A DNA stretch of 24,317 nucleotides. Source: Escherichia phage CBA6. The translations under genes were made by a program, and so were the position numbers. The notes below the pieces were generated by a model. It saw only the letters and a list, made by a program, of their open reading frames with translations, had not been told where the DNA came from and did no database searches. This document shows positions 7,124-23,319 of this stretch, piece after piece. Location of the stretch: sequence record KM389296.1, one strand, 5' to 3'. Numbering within the stretch: the first letter of the stretch is position 1; each line of letters starts with the position of its first letter.

Positions 7124-7162
7124 AGCGATCCTCGGTTTGTGTTAATGCAGGCTGTTATTATA

Positions 7163-7189
7163 CGTCGCCTCCATGGATTGAAGGCGACG
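7163..7189. other. Hairpin in phoH-nrdA intergenic region
   Basis: 8-bp stem CGTCGCCT / AGGCGACG with 11-nt loop; on the minus strand followed by TATAATAACAG. Confidence 0.3.
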
Positions 7190-7207
7190 GGGAAGTTCGT
7201 GTGGTAT

Positions 7208-8047
7208 TTAAATGTTGTACAGGTCGTTAATTTCTAACATCAGGCGGGTGAAGTTACCGCGACCATTACGATCAGACTTATCGAATTCGATGATGCTGAA
7301 TGGCTGAACCCACTCAGGATATTCATCTCCGATTTCTACACCGTCAATTTGCAAAGAACCTGTTTCCAGCTTGTTGTTGAAGTCTTTAAAGGAATCCACA
7401 TACGTCTGTAACGCACTATCACGCAGTCGCTTGTTAGACTGTTTGATATCTCCATTCACGAAGATGTACGAAGAATCTGAAGCACGAGTCAATAAGTTTT
7501 TCAGTTGCTCCATATCGCATTCCTGCGCCTCTTCGATAATCAGGAAACAATCATCGAAAGTCATCCCCTTCACAGTTTCAAGGTCTTGAATTTCTATGAT
7601 GCGTTTCTCCCACAGATAGTTGAAGAAACCGTCGGAACCCGTATCTGTTTTGAGAACCTTTTTGAATGTCTGTATGAGCGGCATCAAATAAGGCATCAGC
7701 TTTTCATATGTGTCACCAGGCCGGAACCCCGCTGTGGTTCCAGTCGGTAAAGGAGAACGCGTGATGATAATCTTGTTGATGGTTTTGTCAATCAGATGCT
7801 TGGCAGCAGCGGACGCACCACAATAGGATTTGCCTGTACCTGCCGGACCGATAGCGATAGTGAGATGTTCATTGAGTGCGGATTGATATGCGAGGTTCTG
7901 ATTTTCTGAGAGGCCATTGAACGGAGCAATTTTGAAATCGCCTTTGGAAAACTTCATCCAGTCTTCTTCCTTCTGGATGGTGTCTTTCTTACGAGCAGAT
8001 TTTGTCTTCGCTGGCTTCATGGATACAACTTTAGACGCAGATTGCAT
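7208..8047 (-). CDS. phoH: PhoH-like ATPase
   Basis: Walker A AIGPAGTGKSY and Walker B-like FLIIEEAQ. The track's 8083 start is GTG; ATG 8047 has an AGGAAGG Shine-Dalgarno. Confidence 0.9.
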   Translation of the reverse strand: MQSASKVVSMKPAKTKSARKKDTIQKEEDWMKFSKGDFKIAPFNGLSENQNLAYQSALNEHLTIAIGPAGTGKSYCGASAAAKHLIDKTINKIIITRSPLPTGTTAGFRPGDTYEKLMPYLMPLIQTFKKVLKTDTGSDGFFNYLWEKRIIEIQDLETVKGMTFDDCFLIIEEAQECDMEQLKNLLTRASDSSYIFVNGDIKQSNKRLRDSALQTYVDSFKDFNNKLETGSLQIDGVEIGDEYPEWVQPFSIIEFDKSDRNGRGNFTRLMLEINDLYNI

Positions 8048-8128: not shown

Positions 8129-8152
8129 AAAAAGGCCGTTTCCGGCCTTTTG
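8129..8152 (-). terminator. Rho-independent terminator after the endolysin gene (bidirectional in form)
   Basis: Stem AAAGGCCG / CGGCCTTT with TTTC loop immediately after the stop; on the minus strand followed by TTTTTCTTTATC. Confidence 0.65.
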
Positions 8153-8947
8153 TTAACAGAAACTCTTGTATGCCGCCGCTAGTTTGGTGTCATACTGGTT
8201 CTTGGCATATGCTGGACCATTGTACCGACGGGCGAACTCAGCCCAATTTTTGTTCTTCAATGCTTTCCACATATTGGCGTCAGCTTTGATGAATTTCACA
8301 AATGCCAGAAGATGTGCGCGTTCACCAGTCAGAAAATCTGTGAACATTTCTTTGGCGTTCGGATAACCACATATCTGGCAATTGAACCCCATGATCTGGA
8401 ATAAGCCGTAGGACGCACTCTCGTACGCGCAATCCTCATCAAGGGCGATTGCACCCTGAAGGCGTTCCAACTCCGCGTCTCCGCCGATATAGCCACCAGA
8501 ATTGGGGTTAACCAATGTTGGGTAAAGTTGGTACAGAGCATTGGCTCTTGCTTGTCCGAATTTAGCCGCCACTTTCTTATACATGATGTGGCGCTCGAAC
8601 AGAGTTTTGATCTTACCTGTTTTGGTGAAACCCGTTCCCCGAGATTCGACCTGGTTAACAGCTTTCATGCTGGCCAGTTCGACACCAAGTTCACGCGCTG
8701 CGTCAACTAAGTCGGCTTCGGTAAGATGTTCCTGATGAGCGTCTCCGGCATTACGGATAGCATAGAAGGTTTTTGGACCTGCAATACCATCAATCACCAG
8801 TCCGGCACCTGCCTGAACGGATTTGACAGCATTCTCGGTCGCTTTGCCAAATATGCCATCAGCTACAAGAGAGAACCCGATTTTATTGAGGCTTTGCTGA
8901 AGTGATTTGACTTCAGAACCTCGGTTGCCAAGTTTTAGAATGGCCAT
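8153..8947 (-). CDS. Endolysin: N-terminal peptidoglycan-binding domain plus C-terminal muramidase-like catalytic domain
   Basis: N-terminus LKLGNRGSEVKSLQQSLNKIGF...DGIFGKATENAVKSVQ is PG_binding_1-like; C-terminus (FERHIMYKK, GLFQIMGFN, NWAEFARRYNGPAYAKNQYDTKL) recalled as N-acetylmuramidase-type. No signal peptide or TM segment. Confidence 0.75.
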   Translation of the reverse strand: MAILKLGNRGSEVKSLQQSLNKIGFSLVADGIFGKATENAVKSVQAGAGLVIDGIAGPKTFYAIRNAGDAHQEHLTEADLVDAARELGVELASMKAVNQVESRGTGFTKTGKIKTLFERHIMYKKVAAKFGQARANALYQLYPTLVNPNSGGYIGGDAELERLQGAIALDEDCAYESASYGLFQIMGFNCQICGYPNAKEMFTDFLTGERAHLLAFVKFIKADANMWKALKNKNWAEFARRYNGPAYAKNQYDTKLAAAYKSFC

Positions 8948-8951
8948 AAGA

Positions 8952-8982
8952 AAATACCTCCGCAGTGATTGCAGAGGTATTT
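8952..8982 (-). promoter_or_regulatory. 5' leader hairpin sequestering the endolysin Shine-Dalgarno
   Basis: 9-bp outer stem plus 3-bp inner stem; the GGAGGT Shine-Dalgarno (8956-8961) lies in the stem, 8 nt before ATG 8947; a TTTAAATA box (8978-8985) overlaps the 5' arm. Confidence 0.45.
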
Positions 8983-9017
8983 AAAGTGAAAGTGAACTGA
9001 CTTGAGGAACTGTTATG

Positions 9018-9323
9018 TTAGATAGTTGACAAAAGAGTGTTCAGACTAACGATCTGCATTTGAATGCCTCTCTTCAGACTTTCATATGCCTCCACTGGTG
9101 AAGGCACGGAGTTAGATTGCTTATTCCCACCATAAGTCTGAGCCGACCAGCGGCCAGTGTCTTGCCAGTAGAAGAGGACGGCTGTTGACTCTCCGCTATC
9201 AATCATGATCGCCCCTACGCCATCAGGGTGATCTTTGAACAACTGATGCTTCCACTGCTTGCCTGTCTTTTCCTTCAGGAGGTGGCATGTTGCTTCGCCG
9301 ATTTGTTCGAGGGTCAGTTTCAT
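9018..9323 (-). CDS. Hypothetical protein (101 aa)
   Basis: ATG start overlapping the upstream stop (ATGA); no TM segment, so not a holin. Confidence 0.5.
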   Translation of the reverse strand: MKLTLEQIGEATCHLLKEKTGKQWKHQLFKDHPDGVGAIMIDSGESTAVLFYWQDTGRWSAQTYGGNKQSNSVPSPVEAYESLKRGIQMQIVSLNTLLSTI

Positions 9324-10051: not shown

Positions 10052-10201
10052 GATGTAATTCCTCATAATGTAGTTGGTTCGTTTCACTTTTCATTCGGCG
10101 GGGTGTTGTGTACCGCCCTATGTGAACTATAATAGTGCATCATTATTGAAGAGTAAAGTCTTTTTCAATAAAATTTTAAAATATTTTTGAAGTATTTTAA
10201 G

Positions 10202-12006: not shown

Positions 12007-12360
12007 TTAAGACAATTGCTTCAGTTTGTAGATGGTCTGATAGCACAGGGTTTTGATTTCATCGAGCGTATTTTGAAGATGGCTGTCACATTGACCGTAA
12101 ATTCCGTTTACGTCGATAACAACGCTATTGACATACGATATAGGATCTGGGTTGTACAGTTTAATATTCTCAAACCCTGGGACATATACACCACCCGCGC
12201 CGATATATGCCTCTGTAAAGGTATCCAGCAAGTCCTCCAGTTCCCCGTAGAACTCCCCGAGTGCCTTGTGCTTGGCATAGGACGTTGTAACGAAGTGGAG
12301 GGCATGAGAGTGGGCTATAGCAAGCAGTCCACGGTTGATGAAAATACTCGCGTTAACCAT
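12007..12360 (-). CDS. Hypothetical protein (117 aa)
   Basis: ATG with GAGGAAACAATC Shine-Dalgarno; preceded by a terminator hairpin. Confidence 0.55.
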   Translation of the reverse strand: MVNASIFINRGLLAIAHSHALHFVTTSYAKHKALGEFYGELEDLLDTFTEAYIGAGGVYVPGFENIKLYNPDPISYVNSVVIDVNGIYGQCDSHLQNTLDEIKTLCYQTIYKLKQLS

Positions 12361-12382
12361 GATTGTTTCCTCAGAAAAAGAA

Positions 12383-12404
12383 ATCCCCCTGTATTTAGGG
12401 GGAT
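12383..12404 (-). terminator. Rho-independent terminator after the 190-aa gene
   Basis: Stem ATCCCCCT / AGGGGGAT with 6-nt loop; on the minus strand followed by TTCTTTTTCTG. Confidence 0.6.
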
Positions 12405-12420
12405 CTTCATTTCACCACGA

Positions 12421-12993
12421 TTAAATCGGTTTCACTCCGATGTACTTGGCGATATCCGCGGCCAGGGTTTTCCCCTTACTGATATCTTGTTGCTTGCCAC
12501 CAACAGTAACGATCACATATGGGTCATCTTCACCGCCGAAGTCGATTGCCACGGCCTTGCCAATACCAGGGATGCCGGAATATTCATATTCAGTGCGACC
12601 GCTTTTGCGAGACTTGCCGACACCCAGCGCTTTACCGATCATCTTATCCATGTTCGCTAGTTCTTGAGCATAGGATTCTGTGACCTGGCCTTTGCTGGCG
12701 TCTTTACCAAAGAAGAATTCGTATCCGTCATGAACGGCAACAACATCTTTGCCCACAGAAACCGCATGAACCTGGTCCGGCGTCAGTTTCACTTTAGTAG
12801 TATTACCATTAGTCAATTCCAGATTATAGACATCGGCCTGATTATCAGGAGTGATCTGGGTCACGGTAGCGCCGGAGCACCATTGTGTTCCATCGGCTTG
12901 TTTAGTGATGGTTACACTTTTGCCTTGTATACCGCCATGAGTTTGCGGCTGCTGGGCTTGTTCTTTAAAATATTCGATAAACGGTTTCATCAT
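12421..12993 (-). CDS. Hypothetical protein (190 aa)
   Basis: ATG with AGGAG Shine-Dalgarno; flanked by hairpins at both ends; Gly/Lys-rich; no recognisable motif. Confidence 0.6.
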   Translation of the reverse strand: MMKPFIEYFKEQAQQPQTHGGIQGKSVTITKQADGTQWCSGATVTQITPDNQADVYNLELTNGNTTKVKLTPDQVHAVSVGKDVVAVHDGYEFFFGKDASKGQVTESYAQELANMDKMIGKALGVGKSRKSGRTEYEYSGIPGIGKAVAIDFGGEDDPYVIVTVGGKQQDISKGKTLAADIAKYIGVKPI

Positions 12994-13019
12994 GGATCTC
13001 CTAAGGATTTTGATGTATT

Positions 13020-13037
13020 TAGCCCCCGAAGGGGCTA
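13020..13037. terminator. Stable hairpin (CGAA/UUCG tetraloop) between the 906-aa and 190-aa genes
   Basis: Stem TAGCCCC / GGGGCTA; the T-tract (TGGTTTATTT) is on the plus side and is weaker on the minus side, so terminator versus processing site is unresolved. Confidence 0.45.
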
Positions 13038-16317: not shown

Positions 16318-16956
16318 TTAAGGTGTGGGATTGACGACAGGGATGTGAAATCTGATTCCAGCAACGATGTCCTTCAGCTGAGGCTTCCAGCCGTCCACCA
16401 GGCGGGACAACGCATTGGAACCAGGATAGACGATAATGATATCGCTTCCGGTAACATTATGCTGAGGGAATTGTGACATGTATTGCTCCATCGTCACACC
16501 TGTGTCAATCAATACAGGACCAACATCAGAAGATGCATATGTCGCGCCCAGACCGTCAATACCCCATGCCAGAATTCCATAATCGGGAATATTGGCTTCG
16601 GATGTTATGGTGTATCCGAAGATACGATTCAACGCCGAGAAGTCATAGACATTGTGAGCACTATCATATGCCAGATAACCTTTGGCCAACATATCAGCAA
16701 AGATCGCGTCTGTGTCGCCAGCGGCTGGGGTCGGAACGGTAAACAGTAGCTCACCTGCCGGAGGAGTAGGATACGTGCCGAGAGCATAAAGGCACCATGC
16801 GTCGACACATTTCTTGATAAACGCTTCGGGAGCAACATAATCAGCCAGGCGCATCGTTCCAGAATATTCAGAACTGATGATGCCTTCTTTTGCCCCCTGA
16901 ATCGCAATAAACACCATTAAGTGCTCGTATCCGGTCTGAGATGGAGTGATATTCAT
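16318..16956 (-). CDS. Hypothetical protein (212 aa)
   Basis: ATG overlaps the stop of the upstream SLT-like gene by 1 nt (TAATG); no signal peptide; no recognisable motif. Confidence 0.6.
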   Translation of the reverse strand: MNITPSQTGYEHLMVFIAIQGAKEGIISSEYSGTMRLADYVAPEAFIKKCVDAWCLYALGTYPTPPAGELLFTVPTPAAGDTDAIFADMLAKGYLAYDSAHNVYDFSALNRIFGYTITSEANIPDYGILAWGIDGLGATYASSDVGPVLIDTGVTMEQYMSQFPQHNVTGSDIIIVYPGSNALSRLVDGWKPQLKDIVAGIRFHIPVVNPTP

Positions 16957-17573
16957 TATCGGGTCCTCTTGAGTTTCTCAATCGTGCGCTTATTCATGGC
17001 GATCACTCCTGGGTCGACCTTCGGGTTTATTGCCATGCCTTTGAAAGACACACATCGTTGAAGATATTTAGCCTTCTTCACGACATCAGCAGCGTATGAA
17101 TTGGATTTTTGGTTACGACTGAAACCGGCATTGTAAGAGGAGAGCGATTTGCGGATGTTTTGGTTATGATACCCAAGCCAGAAATTCATTTCATCAAGGG
17201 CTGCATTGGCTGCGTACTCTTGATTGACCAGCAATTTAATCGCCACGTTGGCGTAACACTTCTGTGTTTTGCATCCCTCCCGTTTCCCAACGGTTTGGAC
17301 GCGATTTTGGAATGCCCCCATATTAGCCGATTTCAGGTTATTCCGCATGGATACCACATCTTCTCCGGCGCGGCTTTCCCTCCATGATATCGCGGCTAGG
17401 GTGAAACCAAGGTCTTGCTGTTTGCCTATGTGATAGGCAGTGGCCATAGTTGAAAGTTGCTGATCAGAAAATTCGTAATCACATTGGGTGGTACTTTGGG
17501 AAGCGTACACACTCCCGCTGGCAATGGTAAAGGTCACGGACAAGGCCATGGCCTTCAACGTTGTCATCGTCAT
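16956..17573 (-). CDS. Secreted lytic transglycosylase-like protein (SLT domain) with N-terminal signal peptide
   Basis: N-terminus MTMTTLKAMALSVTFTIASGSVYA looks like a Sec signal peptide; SLT family motifs in order: WRESRAG (catalytic E-S), NMGAFQ, SYNAGF, YAADVVKKAKY. Confidence 0.65.
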   Translation of the reverse strand: MTMTTLKAMALSVTFTIASGSVYASQSTTQCDYEFSDQQLSTMATAYHIGKQQDLGFTLAAISWRESRAGEDVVSMRNNLKSANMGAFQNRVQTVGKREGCKTQKCYANVAIKLLVNQEYAANAALDEMNFWLGYHNQNIRKSLSSYNAGFSRNQKSNSYAADVVKKAKYLQRCVSFKGMAINPKVDPGVIAMNKRTIEKLKRTR

Positions 17574-17639
17574 GATGGCGTTCCTTATGTGTTTGTCGAC
17601 TTGCAGCTCGATTGAGCCTCCTGACAGGGTTAAAAGATA

Positions 17640-17665
17640 AAGGGCACTTGATATTTAGTGCCCTT
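17640..17665 (-). terminator. Rho-independent terminator ending the recombination/late-sigma operon
   Basis: Stem AAGGGCACT / AGTGCCCTT with 8-nt loop; on the minus strand followed by TATCTTTTAACC. Confidence 0.6.
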
Positions 17666-17669
17666 CACC

Positions 17670-17954
17670 TTATTCGTAGATCAGATGGTATGATTCCTCA
17701 ATACACTCTATCCAGCCGTAGACAAACTCCATAGGATCGTCCCATGCTGATTTTGATGCCACTATGAAATCCCCTTGGAGGATTTGCATATCTGTGTACT
17801 TGTTGAAACCCAAGACGGCGTCAACAACGATCAACCCACCTTGCTCTAGGTAACGTTTTGGTGTCAATGCTACCTGATGATGTTTATTTCGCTGATTCCA
17901 TAATTCCACAGCGATATCACAAGCAATCTGTATTTCATCTTTCTCTTCTGACAT
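17670..17954 (-). CDS. Hypothetical protein (94 aa)
   Basis: ATG start overlapping the 3' end of the upstream gene by 20 nt; acidic; no recognisable motif. Confidence 0.5.
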   Translation of the reverse strand: MSEEKDEIQIACDIAVELWNQRNKHHQVALTPKRYLEQGGLIVVDAVLGFNKYTDMQILQGDFIVASKSAWDDPMEFVYGWIECIEESYHLIYE

Positions 17955-20907: not shown

Positions 20908-22023
20908 TTATGCATCCAATGTGTTCAGGCGTTGTTGGGCAGCATTATAGAATTGTTCTGCTAATTTGCAAACATTTTCAGGGCGCTGGATATTATTGGC
21001 GGCGCGGATATCTTTCTTTAGGACTTCCACAGCATCAGTCGCCACCATCTCTTCAGTGACTTCTACCTTCTCAGACGAGACTGTGATAGTCCGATCTATA
21101 AAGTTGTAATCGATGCATTTACAGCGCTTCAGCGCGTCGCAGAACTTTTCATAATGCTTGGCATTATCGCGGTTCTGTACAATCACTTTAACGATTTGCC
21201 CTTCAATACCCAAACCATTGTTTAGCCAATCTGGGTCAATCCAGTTTCCTTCGGTGTCGGAAGACATTTGGGTGTAGTCGTATTCGATGAATCGGAACAA
21301 CGTTTGTTGCTCGTTGTTGGGAATAAACAATTCCCCGCCTTTCATGTCGTCTACATAGAATCCTCGGTTCGTCCCGTCTTTATGGTCTTCCCAGGTAAGG
21401 TGATAAGGAGTCCCAATATACTGAATGTTACCTTCCATCGAACGGGTATGGAAATGTCCGGTATCCACGCGCTCGAACTTGGAAAGGAGCGCCAAGTCGA
21501 TCTGACCTTTATCACATACAGAGGACTGGTACATTTTGAACCCTGCCAACTCCAGATGCGCAAAACAGTACTTGGCGTCTGTATCTTGTATCGCTTTAAC
21601 AGATGCATCATAATTCTCTTTATTGATCCATGGGAGAAGCAATACCTTTTCGCCTTCAATCGAAACTTCAGTGGGTTCACTGTAATAATGATAGACGTCT
21701 GGCGCTAATTCATTCAGATAGGATGGCCAGTTGATACGGTTAGATTCTTCTAAGGTGATATCATGGTTTCCAACGATGCCATTCCATTTGATACCCGCCT
21801 TTCTCAGGGCTGGAGTCAGTTCATCTTTCAACCAATCTTTGTCGCGCCCGTACATAAATTTACGAACATCAAATGTGTCGCCGAATTGCCAAACTTCTTT
21901 AATGTCTGCATCTACCAATTCGGGAATAAAATAGTTGATGAGATAATTCTTTATGAATTCACGAACGTAACGGGAACCATTGCGGCTCCCGATGTGTAAA
22001 TCGCCAATTTTAGCAATCGCCAT
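20908..22023 (-). CDS. Recombination nuclease subunit (T4 gp47 / Mre11 / SbcD-like), 371 aa
   Basis: Calcineurin-like phosphoesterase motifs (IGDLHIG, GDTFD, GNHD, GHFH). The track's 22038 start is TTG; ATG 22023 has a GGAG Shine-Dalgarno. Confidence 0.9.
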   Translation of the reverse strand: MAIAKIGDLHIGSRNGSRYVREFIKNYLINYFIPELVDADIKEVWQFGDTFDVRKFMYGRDKDWLKDELTPALRKAGIKWNGIVGNHDITLEESNRINWPSYLNELAPDVYHYYSEPTEVSIEGEKVLLLPWINKENYDASVKAIQDTDAKYCFAHLELAGFKMYQSSVCDKGQIDLALLSKFERVDTGHFHTRSMEGNIQYIGTPYHLTWEDHKDGTNRGFYVDDMKGGELFIPNNEQQTLFRFIEYDYTQMSSDTEGNWIDPDWLNNGLGIEGQIVKVIVQNRDNAKHYEKFCDALKRCKCIDYNFIDRTITVSSEKVEVTEEMVATDAVEVLKKDIRAANNIQRPENVCKLAEQFYNAAQQRLNTLDA

Positions 22024-22780
22024 TATTCTTTTCTCCAACTGATTCGGCTAACAATGTGGGGCTGTCCATTATATCTTCAAGACTAAATTGAGTAGAGCCG
22101 AAGTCATTATCTGAATTATCTTCGGCGTCAGCGGTAATGGTATTTTCACTCTTCGTAAGACATTGAAGTATACCGCGAGGGATTTTCTTATTCTTTTCCT
22201 CTTCTTTGATAGCCGTTTGTTTTTGGCGTTCCTTTTCACGCTGGGCTTCTTTCTTATTTTCGAAATTACCGATGCGTTCACGAAAGTCCATCGTTATCCC
22301 AGTGCTATCAACGAAGGTTTGTTGTTGGAAGTCTGGGTCATCCGATAAAGCTGCGAACCCACCTGCTTCTTCAAAGGAACGCAATTTAATATAGTTGTGT
22401 TCTTCTTCACTCGTGAGTTTCTTGGCGAATGAGCGATCAGCACACATAGTCACCCAAGAGAAGAAGTTGATCTTTCCTTTCTTGCCGATATGGCTAACAT
22501 CAAAGGTGTGAAGGTAACGAAGGATGTTCACAACCGCTTCACTCACCATGTCTTCACGATATGGATAATCACGGTAGTTGTAGCGCATACTCATATTCTT
22601 GATTATCATCTGAACATTCATGGCCACATAATTGGGGATTCTTGGTAGGGGTGTTCCTTCGGCTAATGCCTTTTTACGAGCAGGGATCCAATCACGCAAT
22701 ATCCCCACAACTCGATCGTTATCTTCGTCAGTGAAATATTTGGTGACGTTATCACCCCTGTCTACAAAATTCATACCCAT
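22010..22780 (-). CDS. Late-transcription sigma factor (T4 gp55-like) with extended charged C-terminus
   Basis: Collinear with recalled T4 gp55 (ILRDWI; YVAMNVQMIIKNMSMRYNYRDY...LHTFD; NFFSWVTMCADRSFAKKL); position next to gp47/gp46 as in T4. The track's 22795 start is TTG; ATG 22780 has a GAGGA Shine-Dalgarno. Confidence 0.7.
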   Translation of the reverse strand: MGMNFVDRGDNVTKYFTDEDNDRVVGILRDWIPARKKALAEGTPLPRIPNYVAMNVQMIIKNMSMRYNYRDYPYREDMVSEAVVNILRYLHTFDVSHIGKKGKINFFSWVTMCADRSFAKKLTSEEEHNYIKLRSFEEAGGFAALSDDPDFQQQTFVDSTGITMDFRERIGNFENKKEAQREKERQKQTAIKEEEKNKKIPRGILQCLTKSENTITADAEDNSDNDFGSTQFSLEDIMDSPTLLAESVGEKNNGDC

Positions 22781-22791
22781 CGTGATAATCC

Positions 22792-23319
22792 TCAAATACC
22801 AATGAATTCATTGAAAGAACCAACAACCTTTCTGACCAGGAAACGATTATTTTCAAGAACCATCGAGCTATTTTCTTTGGCTCTGACGCTCCACTGATCT
22901 GCGATTTCGTTGCCGATATTCCCCGCATGACCTTTCACCCATTTTAATTCAAGTTCACAAATTGAACAAACTTTGTCATAATAATTGAACAATTCGAGTA
23001 GGAGTTCTGTGTTCTTAGGCGGCATCCCTTCATATTCCCATTTTCTACGCCACTCCAAAACACTATTGATAACATATTGGCTATCGGATATAATACGGGC
23101 TGGGGGAATACAGCGTTCACCGCAATTCGAGAATTTCCATAGAATCTTCAAGGCGTTTATAACCCCAAGCAACTCAGCGATATTATTCGTTGACGGTGGG
23201 GGTAAATACCCATAAAACACTTTCCATTGCTCTCCAGTGATTGGACTGATAGCAAATGCCCAACCTGCGGCTTGTGTCTTCTGCGGGGAAGATGCCCCGT
23301 CAGTGTATATTTCAATCAT
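22792..23319 (-). CDS. rnhA: Ribonuclease HI (bacterial RnhA-type)
   Basis: Catalytic motifs IYTDGA, NNIAELLGVINAL, SDSQYVINSV, WVKGHAGNIGNEIAD. The track's 23334 start is TTG; first ATG is 23319. Confidence 0.8.
   Translation of the reverse strand: MIEIYTDGASSPQKTQAAGWAFAISPITGEQWKVFYGYLPPPSTNNIAELLGVINALKILWKFSNCGERCIPPARIISDSQYVINSVLEWRRKWEYEGMPPKNTELLLELFNYYDKVCSICELELKWVKGHAGNIGNEIADQWSVRAKENSSMVLENNRFLVRKVVGSFNEFIGI

Follow-up and report, generated by a model that had tools for sequence, protein, structure and literature searches.

How could the ribosome-binding site of an endolysin gene be kept closed on early transcripts and open on late ones, when the gene sits within a long co-directional run of replication and nucleotide-metabolism genes? 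This question is raised by a stretch of 24,317 nucleotides (nt) of Escherichia phage CBA6 (KM389296.1), hereafter called the window. An original prediction, made from the letters alone, had proposed that the Shine-Dalgarno sequence of the endolysin is locked in a hairpin whose 5′ arm overlaps a late-promoter-like box, as described for gene e (lysozyme) of T4. Our analysis supports the view that the endolysin leader is probably a composite cassette for late-gene control, with a mode of action like that of T4 gene e. The window belongs to Kuttervirus (Vi01-like phages, Ackermannviridae), a group of distant T4 relatives, and shows 99.8% identity to Salmonella phage BRM 13314 over a test stretch. 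The endolysin gene, whose ATG is at 8947..8945 on the minus strand, and the elements of its leader are the following.

8153..8947, minus strand: endolysin gene, 264 amino acids, PG_binding_1 and N-acetylmuramidase PF11860, non-homologous to the T4 lysozyme family.
8948..8956, minus strand: U-rich spacer TATTTTCTT from the Shine-Dalgarno to the AUG, invariant in 19 loci; KF669653 and OR122688 have a terminator annotation across the hairpin.
8952..8964, minus strand: hairpin 3′ arm TGCGGAGGTATTT with the Shine-Dalgarno GGAGG (8961..8957); a ribosome-binding site is annotated here in the Marshall and Maynard records.
8965..8969, minus strand: loop ATCAC; the variants in relatives are ATCAC, TACAT, TTCAT and AACAT.
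8970..8974, minus strand: predicted late transcription start at about 8972, the sixth nt after the box by the T4 rule.
8970..8982, minus strand: hairpin 5′ arm AAATACCTCTGCA, the anti-Shine-Dalgarno arm, of which AAATA is common to the arm and the late box.
8978..8985, minus strand: late-promoter-like box TTTAAATA, with the core TAAATA at 8983..8978; the T4 rule would place the box at -13..-6.
8986..9010, minus strand: conserved block CCTCAAGT-N-TTCACT-TTCACT (a tandem TTCACT repeat), directly upstream of the box.

Read on the minus strand, the endolysin leader is cacTTTAAATACCTCTGCAatcacTGCGGAGGTATTTtcttATG. A repeat finder located an inverted repeat with arms at 8982..8970 and 8964..8952, in which 13 positions pair (12 Watson-Crick pairs and one G-U) around the 5-nt loop at 8969..8965. 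The hairpin originally described with 12 base pairs (bp) is thus confirmed, and its stem counts 13 bp once the G-U pair is included. GGAGG lies wholly within the 3′ arm. Folded alone, the hairpin reaches -17.5 kcal/mol, so it is thermodynamically stable, as the prediction had supposed. For the 88-nt leader, the centroid energy is -18 kcal/mol (z = -4.24), and none of 200 shuffles folds equally well. No match to Rfam covariance models was found at gathering thresholds in the whole window.

Could this hairpin be a functionless inverted repeat that arose by chance? Comparable hairpins do occur in dinucleotide shuffles of the window: 36-nt hairpins at or below -15 kcal/mol are found at 18 loci on the minus strand and at 6-18 loci in five such shuffles. 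In view of these counts per strand, the stability of the hairpin alone is not beyond chance, and we rejected it as a significance test. In addition, TTTAAATA by itself is not enriched in the window (2 copies against 0.96 expected). The features that do go beyond chance are the position and the conservation of the leader, not its stability.

Conservation was measured across 19 Ackermannviridae loci, whose endolysins are 84-100% identical. Of 48 leader columns, 8 are variable; in the coding sequence next to the leader, 66 of 80 third-codon positions vary, so that the leader is conserved far above synonymous sites. Its changes are confined to the distal edge, the loop, or stem positions at which the substitution preserves pairing (C-G to U-G, G-C to G-U). 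One leader haplotype carries an A-G mismatch, and every haplotype folds, with energies from -12.4 to -17.7 kcal/mol. The consensus structure calculated by RNAalifold is the endolysin hairpin, the late box is conserved in the 19 loci, and the flank upstream of about -60 is unrelated between genera.

Serratia phage phiMAM1 (Miltonvirus), whose endolysin is 60% identical, has the leader AATAAATACCCTCTGatataccaaCAGAGGGTTTTTCATTATG. At the same place, it carries a T4-type box variant, AATAAATA, with A at -13. Its stem differs in sequence, ACCCTCTG/CAGAGGGT (ACCCUCUG/CAGAGGGU), and the Shine-Dalgarno is again in the 3′ arm. Both arms are therefore altered while their complementarity is retained, and the hairpin folded alone has -12.2 kcal/mol. 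The pairs of phiMAM1 that appear broken in RNAalifold are an artefact, because the MAFFT alignment is one base out of register. Overall, the low variability of the leader, the pairing-preserving changes within the family and the stem re-made in phiMAM1 effectively refute a chance origin, to which we give almost no credence.

The masking of the ribosome site was quantified for all Vi01 genes (n=208) as the opening energy, that is the free energy required to unpair positions -15..+3 in an RNA spanning -70..+30. The endolysin start has an opening energy of 18.7 kcal/mol and ranks third of 208, the median of the genes that lack a box being 6.1 kcal/mol. In the long RNA, the computed probability that GGAGG is unpaired is 0.00, so that the site is sequestered in silico, as in locks of the T4 gene e type. 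Ten Vi01 genes have opening energies of at least 15 kcal/mol, eight of which carry a TAAATA box (Fisher P = 2e-6); these eight are among the nine highest-ranking starts. Box genes exceed non-box genes in opening energy overall (Mann-Whitney P = 1e-6). The rank of the endolysin start and this genome-wide association of boxes with masked starts also speak against a chance repeat. When the RNA begins at the sixth base after the box (T4 spacing), the opening energy of the endolysin start drops to 4.9 kcal/mol, and a sensitivity scan showed that any start at least 4 nt after the box gives 4.9 kcal/mol or less. Hence, the calculations agree with both halves of what had been claimed, namely a Shine-Dalgarno strongly masked in read-through RNA and exposed in RNA begun downstream of the box.

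In the first 50 kb of phiMAM1, box-anchored hairpins are found at the two starts with the strongest masking, whose opening energies of 21.9 and 18.5 kcal/mol fall to about 5 kcal/mol. Overall, the difference in opening energy between box and non-box genes of these 50 kb is not significant (P = 0.12). The most strongly masked start of Vi01 (19.9 kcal/mol; gene 140538..141812, leader 140468-140537) has no exact box; its leader reads TTCTATACTCCTGTAGA...TCTACAGGAG, in which CTATAC may be a degenerate box in a lock of this kind.

Is the box a promoter? Exact counts of TATAAATA or TTTAAATA in the window are uninformative because the window consists mostly of replication genes, and the box statistics were therefore moved to the whole assembled Vi01 genome. 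There, TAAATA occurs 58 times and is the rarest among 15 permutations of its letters (the others have 80-162 copies). Although the zone 15-60 nt upstream of same-strand start codons covers 3% of the sequence, half of the copies (29/58) are located in it (binomial P = 1.3e-28). The genes that follow these promoter-positioned copies are mostly late or structural: baseplate, sheath, scaffold, neck, tail spikes, gp2 and the endolysin. In the first 50 kb of phiMAM1, 9 of 14 TAAATA copies are likewise promoter-positioned. Judged by the Vi01 counts, the TAAATA core behaves as a promoter element genome-wide.

The resulting late consensus of Vi01-like phages is [A/C/G]CTAAATA, which agrees with that of Aeromonas phage Aeh1, of the a/gCTAAATA type, cited by Geiduschek and Kassavetis (PMC2988020). 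A conserved upstream (-35-like) element was sought among the Vi01 late boxes, and none was found. In the endolysin leader, TTTAAATA (8985..8978) shares 5 nt with the hairpin 5′ arm, which places the late box in the 5′ strand, as in locks of the T4 gene e type. Of the original claim, a late-promoter-like box overlapping the 5′ arm therefore holds, and its yardstick has to be changed, since the family consensus is [A/C/G]CTAAATA and not the T4 sequence TATAAATA. The orthologous TAAATA is already annotated as 'putative late promoter' in the LIMEstone1 record HE600015. The upstream regions of the Vi01 major capsid and portal genes (L027 2191-2281 and 6065-6131) are without exact TAAATA and show the one-mismatch variants ACTAAGTA and ACTAATTA at the expected distance, from which it follows that there are more late promoters than the 29 exact-core sites.

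The late machinery known from locks of the T4 gene e type (gp55 sigma factor, gp33 and the gp45 clamp) is represented as well, by a gp55 homologue in the window and by gp33 and gp45, which are annotated in the Vi01 genome.

22010..22795, minus strand: gene of a gp55-type late sigma factor, phrog_234 'late sigma transcription factor' (E = 1.2e-53), with a concordant annotation of Vi01_103c.

This factor is the expected trans-acting partner of the endolysin late box. Its identification came from PHROGs, a Pfam search with the gp55 homologue having given no match. All three proteins, gp55, gp33 and gp45, have been reported in phages AG3 and CBA120 (PMC3121705, PMC3184105), and the CBA120 paper lists the late-promoter sequence of Vi01-like phages as unidentified (PMC3184105).

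The stable and conserved hairpin, the behaviour of the box and the computed switch suggest the following course of events, for which we infer the transcription start site, the read-through RNA and the late timing of translation. RNA initiated upstream would carry both hairpin arms, and its Shine-Dalgarno would be buried so that ribosomes could not load. The hairpin and its U-rich tail would probably also terminate much of this upstream RNA, the read-through remainder staying locked. After replication begins, host RNA polymerase with the gp55-type sigma factor would recognise the TAAATA box, which is the outer part of the 5′ arm. T4 late boxes lie at -13..-6 (PMC2988020); initiation would thus occur about 6 nt past the box, at about 8972, inside the stem. 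Late transcripts would then be made without the anti-Shine-Dalgarno arm, leaving a free Shine-Dalgarno that could be translated.

Another explanation concerns transcription that arrives from upstream of the hairpin.

9018..9323, minus strand: co-directional open reading frame (ORF) of 101 amino acids, phrog_10386, function unknown.

Transcripts from this ORF would enter the endolysin hairpin, which begins 36 nt past its stop codon, and sigma-70-like sites are found farther upstream of the endolysin at 10200..10129 (minus strand). The hairpin could be merely a Rho-independent terminator that insulates the endolysin from upstream early and middle transcription, in which case the overlap of box and Shine-Dalgarno would stem from compact spacing and the masking would be incidental. 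The position just behind an ORF fits such a role. Moreover, a terminator is annotated over the hairpin, overlapping the ribosome-binding site, in KF669653, KF669654 and OR122688 (Marshall, Maynard and vB_SenM-AKM_ssTn), the hairpin has a 9-bp G+C-rich core of -13.3 kcal/mol followed by AUUUUCUU, and phiMAM1 has a canonical U5 tail, GGGUUUUUCAUU. The original prediction had missed this GenBank annotation of a hairpin with a U-rich tail, although its reading of the structure as a Shine-Dalgarno lock is supported. The spacer TATTTTCTT could double as the terminator U-tract.

Other late boxes of the window also lie inside a terminator-like hairpin, in its loop, or right after one (12415..12380, 17670..17635 and 13021..13016, minus strand), so that the combination of terminator and late promoter seems to be a habit of this genome. 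These apparent composites of a terminator and a late promoter read GATCCCCC[TAAATA]CAGGGGGATTTCTTTTTC, GAAGGGCAC[TAAATA]TCAAGTGCCCTTTATCTTTT and CCCCTTCGGGG-GCTAAATA, and front the ORFs 12007..12360, 16956..17573 and 12421..12993.

Three observations argue against a role limited to termination. Although the stem sequence differs, each lineage has its Shine-Dalgarno covered exactly by the 3′ arm, and the terminator scan of the window did not call the hairpin. In addition, a U-tract is missing from sister cassettes of Vi01 in which box and Shine-Dalgarno pair likewise (tail spikes 3 and 4, Vi01_183, Vi01_200 and neck gp14), and also from T4 gene e, so that the shared feature is the sequestration of the Shine-Dalgarno. 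We therefore regard a pure terminator as an unlikely, if serious, alternative. Termination is probably a second, compatible role, giving a double lock, and not a replacement for the translational lock.

Several further points weigh against a late-promoter-driven lock. The invariant TAAATA core is intact in the endolysin box, but its position -12 is a T, in contrast to the C favoured in the family and the A favoured in T4. Directly 3′ of the box, the leader is rich in G+C, unlike T4 late promoters, which are A+T-rich at this place (PMC2988020). The predicted relief of the phiMAM1 endolysin is smaller, from 13.8 to 8.0 kcal/mol. Efficient termination at the hairpin would leave little read-through RNA and make the lock largely redundant. 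A literature search found no mapped transcription starts, 3′ ends, transcriptomes or expression data for Kuttervirus or Ackermannviridae. Finally, the model leaves the conserved CCTCAAGT..TTCACTTTCAC block upstream of the box unexplained. This block is (nearly) invariant across Kuttervirus, Limestonevirus and Taipeivirus-like loci while its flanks diverge, and it is absent from other late promoters and from phiMAM1. Two candidate roles were rejected: a sigma-70 promoter in the TTCACTTTCAC block, whose spacings and hexamers are unfit and where the promoter scan found nothing, and a plus-strand mini-ORF of 4 codons opposite CCTCAAGT, which is not conserved in other genera.

The departure of the box at -12 from both the T4 and the family consensus, and a strictly conserved block directly upstream that could be the real control site, would suit a different explanation, in which the box is not a promoter and the endolysin mRNA always includes the hairpin. 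The latter would then be a 5′-leader stability element, or a lock that has to be opened actively, be it by RNase processing, a helicase or a phage protein. This is improbable in view of the positional enrichment of TAAATA, the maintenance of the box in the 19 loci, and the AATAAATA of phiMAM1, which is a T4 late-promoter variant. In addition, no sigma-70-type promoter is detectable in the conserved block, either by scan or by inspection, and no late box or other promoter lies nearer upstream. Control by a late promoter that starts inside the stem thus remains the preferred reading.

Is the endolysin leader a singular case? The original prediction had described its arrangement correctly and missed that it is not unique, about ten late genes sharing the design. 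In Vi01, it is found upstream of Vi01_142c, neck gp14, tail spikes 2, 3 and 4, gp6, Vi01_179, Vi01_183, Vi01_200 and helicase 137c. All these copies have a 5′ arm that begins within the box, in its AAATA, and a 3′ arm formed by the Shine-Dalgarno; their stems differ (CCCCCAA, CCCCAUA, CCCCUAAAUG, CCUUCA and others). Box-anchored hairpins are seen at 9 of 29 promoter-positioned TAAATA sites and at 2 of the 29 other sites, a difference that is weakly significant (P = 0.04).

The leaders of tail spikes 2 and 3 are near-identical, CCTAAATACCCCATATTGG(c/a)A..ATCCTTTATGGGGTATT (Vi01 124015-124069 and 126611-126660), and the tail-spike genes are flanked by TAAATACCCC...GGGGTAT cassettes. Besides being Shine-Dalgarno locks, the tail-spike leader cassettes are candidate recombination junctions for tail-spike swapping. 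More broadly, it is conceivable, and we propose it tentatively, that the endolysin leader is one copy of a family-wide cassette combining a terminator, a gp55-type promoter and a Shine-Dalgarno lock, present at about ten late genes including each tail-spike gene, and that the genes behind it would be translated only from RNA of their own promoter. If so, the cassette would keep the dosage of horizontally swapped modules independent of read-through, and its near-identical copies could act as recombination junctions, the late-gene counterpart of the PeSL elements discussed below.

The surroundings of the endolysin gene provide some additional observations. The gene is closed by a second hairpin.

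8130..8151, minus strand: intrinsic-terminator-like hairpin directly past the endolysin stop codon, found by the terminator scan and also annotated as a terminator in GenBank records.

With this terminator at 8151..8130, the endolysin gene is a self-contained unit. At its other end, an imperfect palindrome, TTTTCTTATGGCCATTCTAAAA, is centred on the start codon (8933-8954); its equivalent in the LIMEstone1 record is a 'terminator' overlapping the start of the coding sequence. This palindrome is probably weak and contributes little to the opening energy of the short transcript. Farther away, the close relative vB_SenM-AKM_ssTn has a homing endonuclease gene between phoH and nrdA (1-544 of the compared segment), and none is present at 7124-7210 of the window; the phoH-nrdA locus is a site of mobile-element gain and loss.

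How does the endolysin leader compare with known systems? The literature search found no paper describing such an arrangement in Ackermannviridae, its pieces being annotated separately in different records. The separate GenBank annotations 'terminator', 'RBS' (ribosome-binding site) and 'late promoter' would thus designate one device. A Rho-independent terminator is resembled by the G+C-rich stem, the short loop, the U-rich 3′ tail and the location downstream of a stop codon. The differences are that the interrupted tail AUUUUCUU is also the spacer from Shine-Dalgarno to AUG of the next gene, and that the 5′ arm carries a promoter box.

The PeSLs (PMC2839356, PMC4122927) are similar in that they combine a compact stem-loop and a promoter in short intergenic spaces and are repeated in the genome, near-identical copies flanking swappable genes. 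However, PeSLs have sigma-70 early promoters and no role at the ribosome site, whereas the endolysin cassette has a gp55-type box and a 3′ arm that is the Shine-Dalgarno. The promoter scan found no sigma-70-like site at or near the endolysin hairpin, and the box is of the late type. A PeSL-like early element does occur in the window upstream of nrdA (7162-7197, minus strand), where the stem-loop CGTCGCCTTCAATCCATGGAGGCGACG is directly followed by TATAAT, and many Vi01 early genes have TTCAATAA...stem-loops with TATAAT or TATAAT-like loops.

Other hairpin-regulated late genes and homing endonucleases of T4-type phages are soc, 49, I-TevI/II/III, segB and mobE of Aeh1 (PMC2988022, PMC3014915). 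As proposed here, longer early or middle RNAs include these late genes with a sequestered ribosome site, and the placement of the late promoter leaves the late RNA without the inhibitory strand. They are scattered cases in Straboviridae, whereas Vi01 reuses the design at about ten late genes, including tail spikes that follow other late genes. Such reuse, at each tail spike among others, is not obviously predicted by T4 biology.

The closest counterpart is T4 gene e itself, for which it was proven experimentally that long transcripts form the structure and are about 100-fold less translated, late transcripts being without the 5′ strand (PMC3014915; also PMC2988022); a review credits this control to McPheeters et al. 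1986 (PMC3014915). The T4 gene e leader, read directly, is TTATAAATACCTTCTATAAATACTTAGGAGGTATTATG, in which the late box contains the beginning of the 5′ arm, AAUACCUUC, and GGAGGUAUU forms the 3′ arm. The arm sequence is nearly the same as here, TAAATACCTTC...GGAGGTATT: a GGAGG(T)ATT Shine-Dalgarno pairs with AAUACCU.., the outer bases of which belong to the late box. Late transcripts of gene e start inside the stem, and such a start is predicted for the Vi01-like endolysin. Both genes encode a lone lysis enzyme among co-directional early and middle genes. In the same calculation, the opening energy falls from 16.6 to 4.1 kcal/mol for gene e (first late promoter) and from 18.7 to 4.9 kcal/mol for the endolysin. 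The likeness to gene e put forward originally is thus supported by the same anatomy, nearly the same arm sequence and the same drop in energy.

There are also differences. The phage belongs to Ackermannviridae and not to Straboviridae, and the enzyme is non-homologous (PG_binding_1 and PF11860). There is one box here, TTTAAATA, and two TATAAATA boxes in T4. The endolysin stem is longer and tighter, with 13 bp, a 5-nt loop and -17.5 kcal/mol, against 11 pairs, an 8-nt loop and -12.3 kcal/mol in gene e (ViennaRNA). The U-rich tail gives the endolysin hairpin a terminator character, and the endolysin lock is described in silico whereas that of gene e is experimentally proven.

Hence, the mechanism of T4 gene e would reach into another phage family and act on an endolysin that is not homologous to T4 lysozyme. 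Either the design is very old, or it is easily invented anew wherever pairing is possible between a TAAATA-type late box and a GGAGG-UAUU ribosome site. The Vi01 analysis also supplies a concrete late-promoter consensus, [A/C/G]CTAAATA, for Vi01-like phages. Kuttervirus phages serve in the biocontrol of Salmonella and E. coli O157. In engineering, a transfer of endolysin or tail-spike cassettes that leaves out their 5′ arm or box would alter timing and yield. Overall, the leader shows all the sequence-level features that define the T4 gene e-type class, and control of the endolysin would therefore belong to an already known type.

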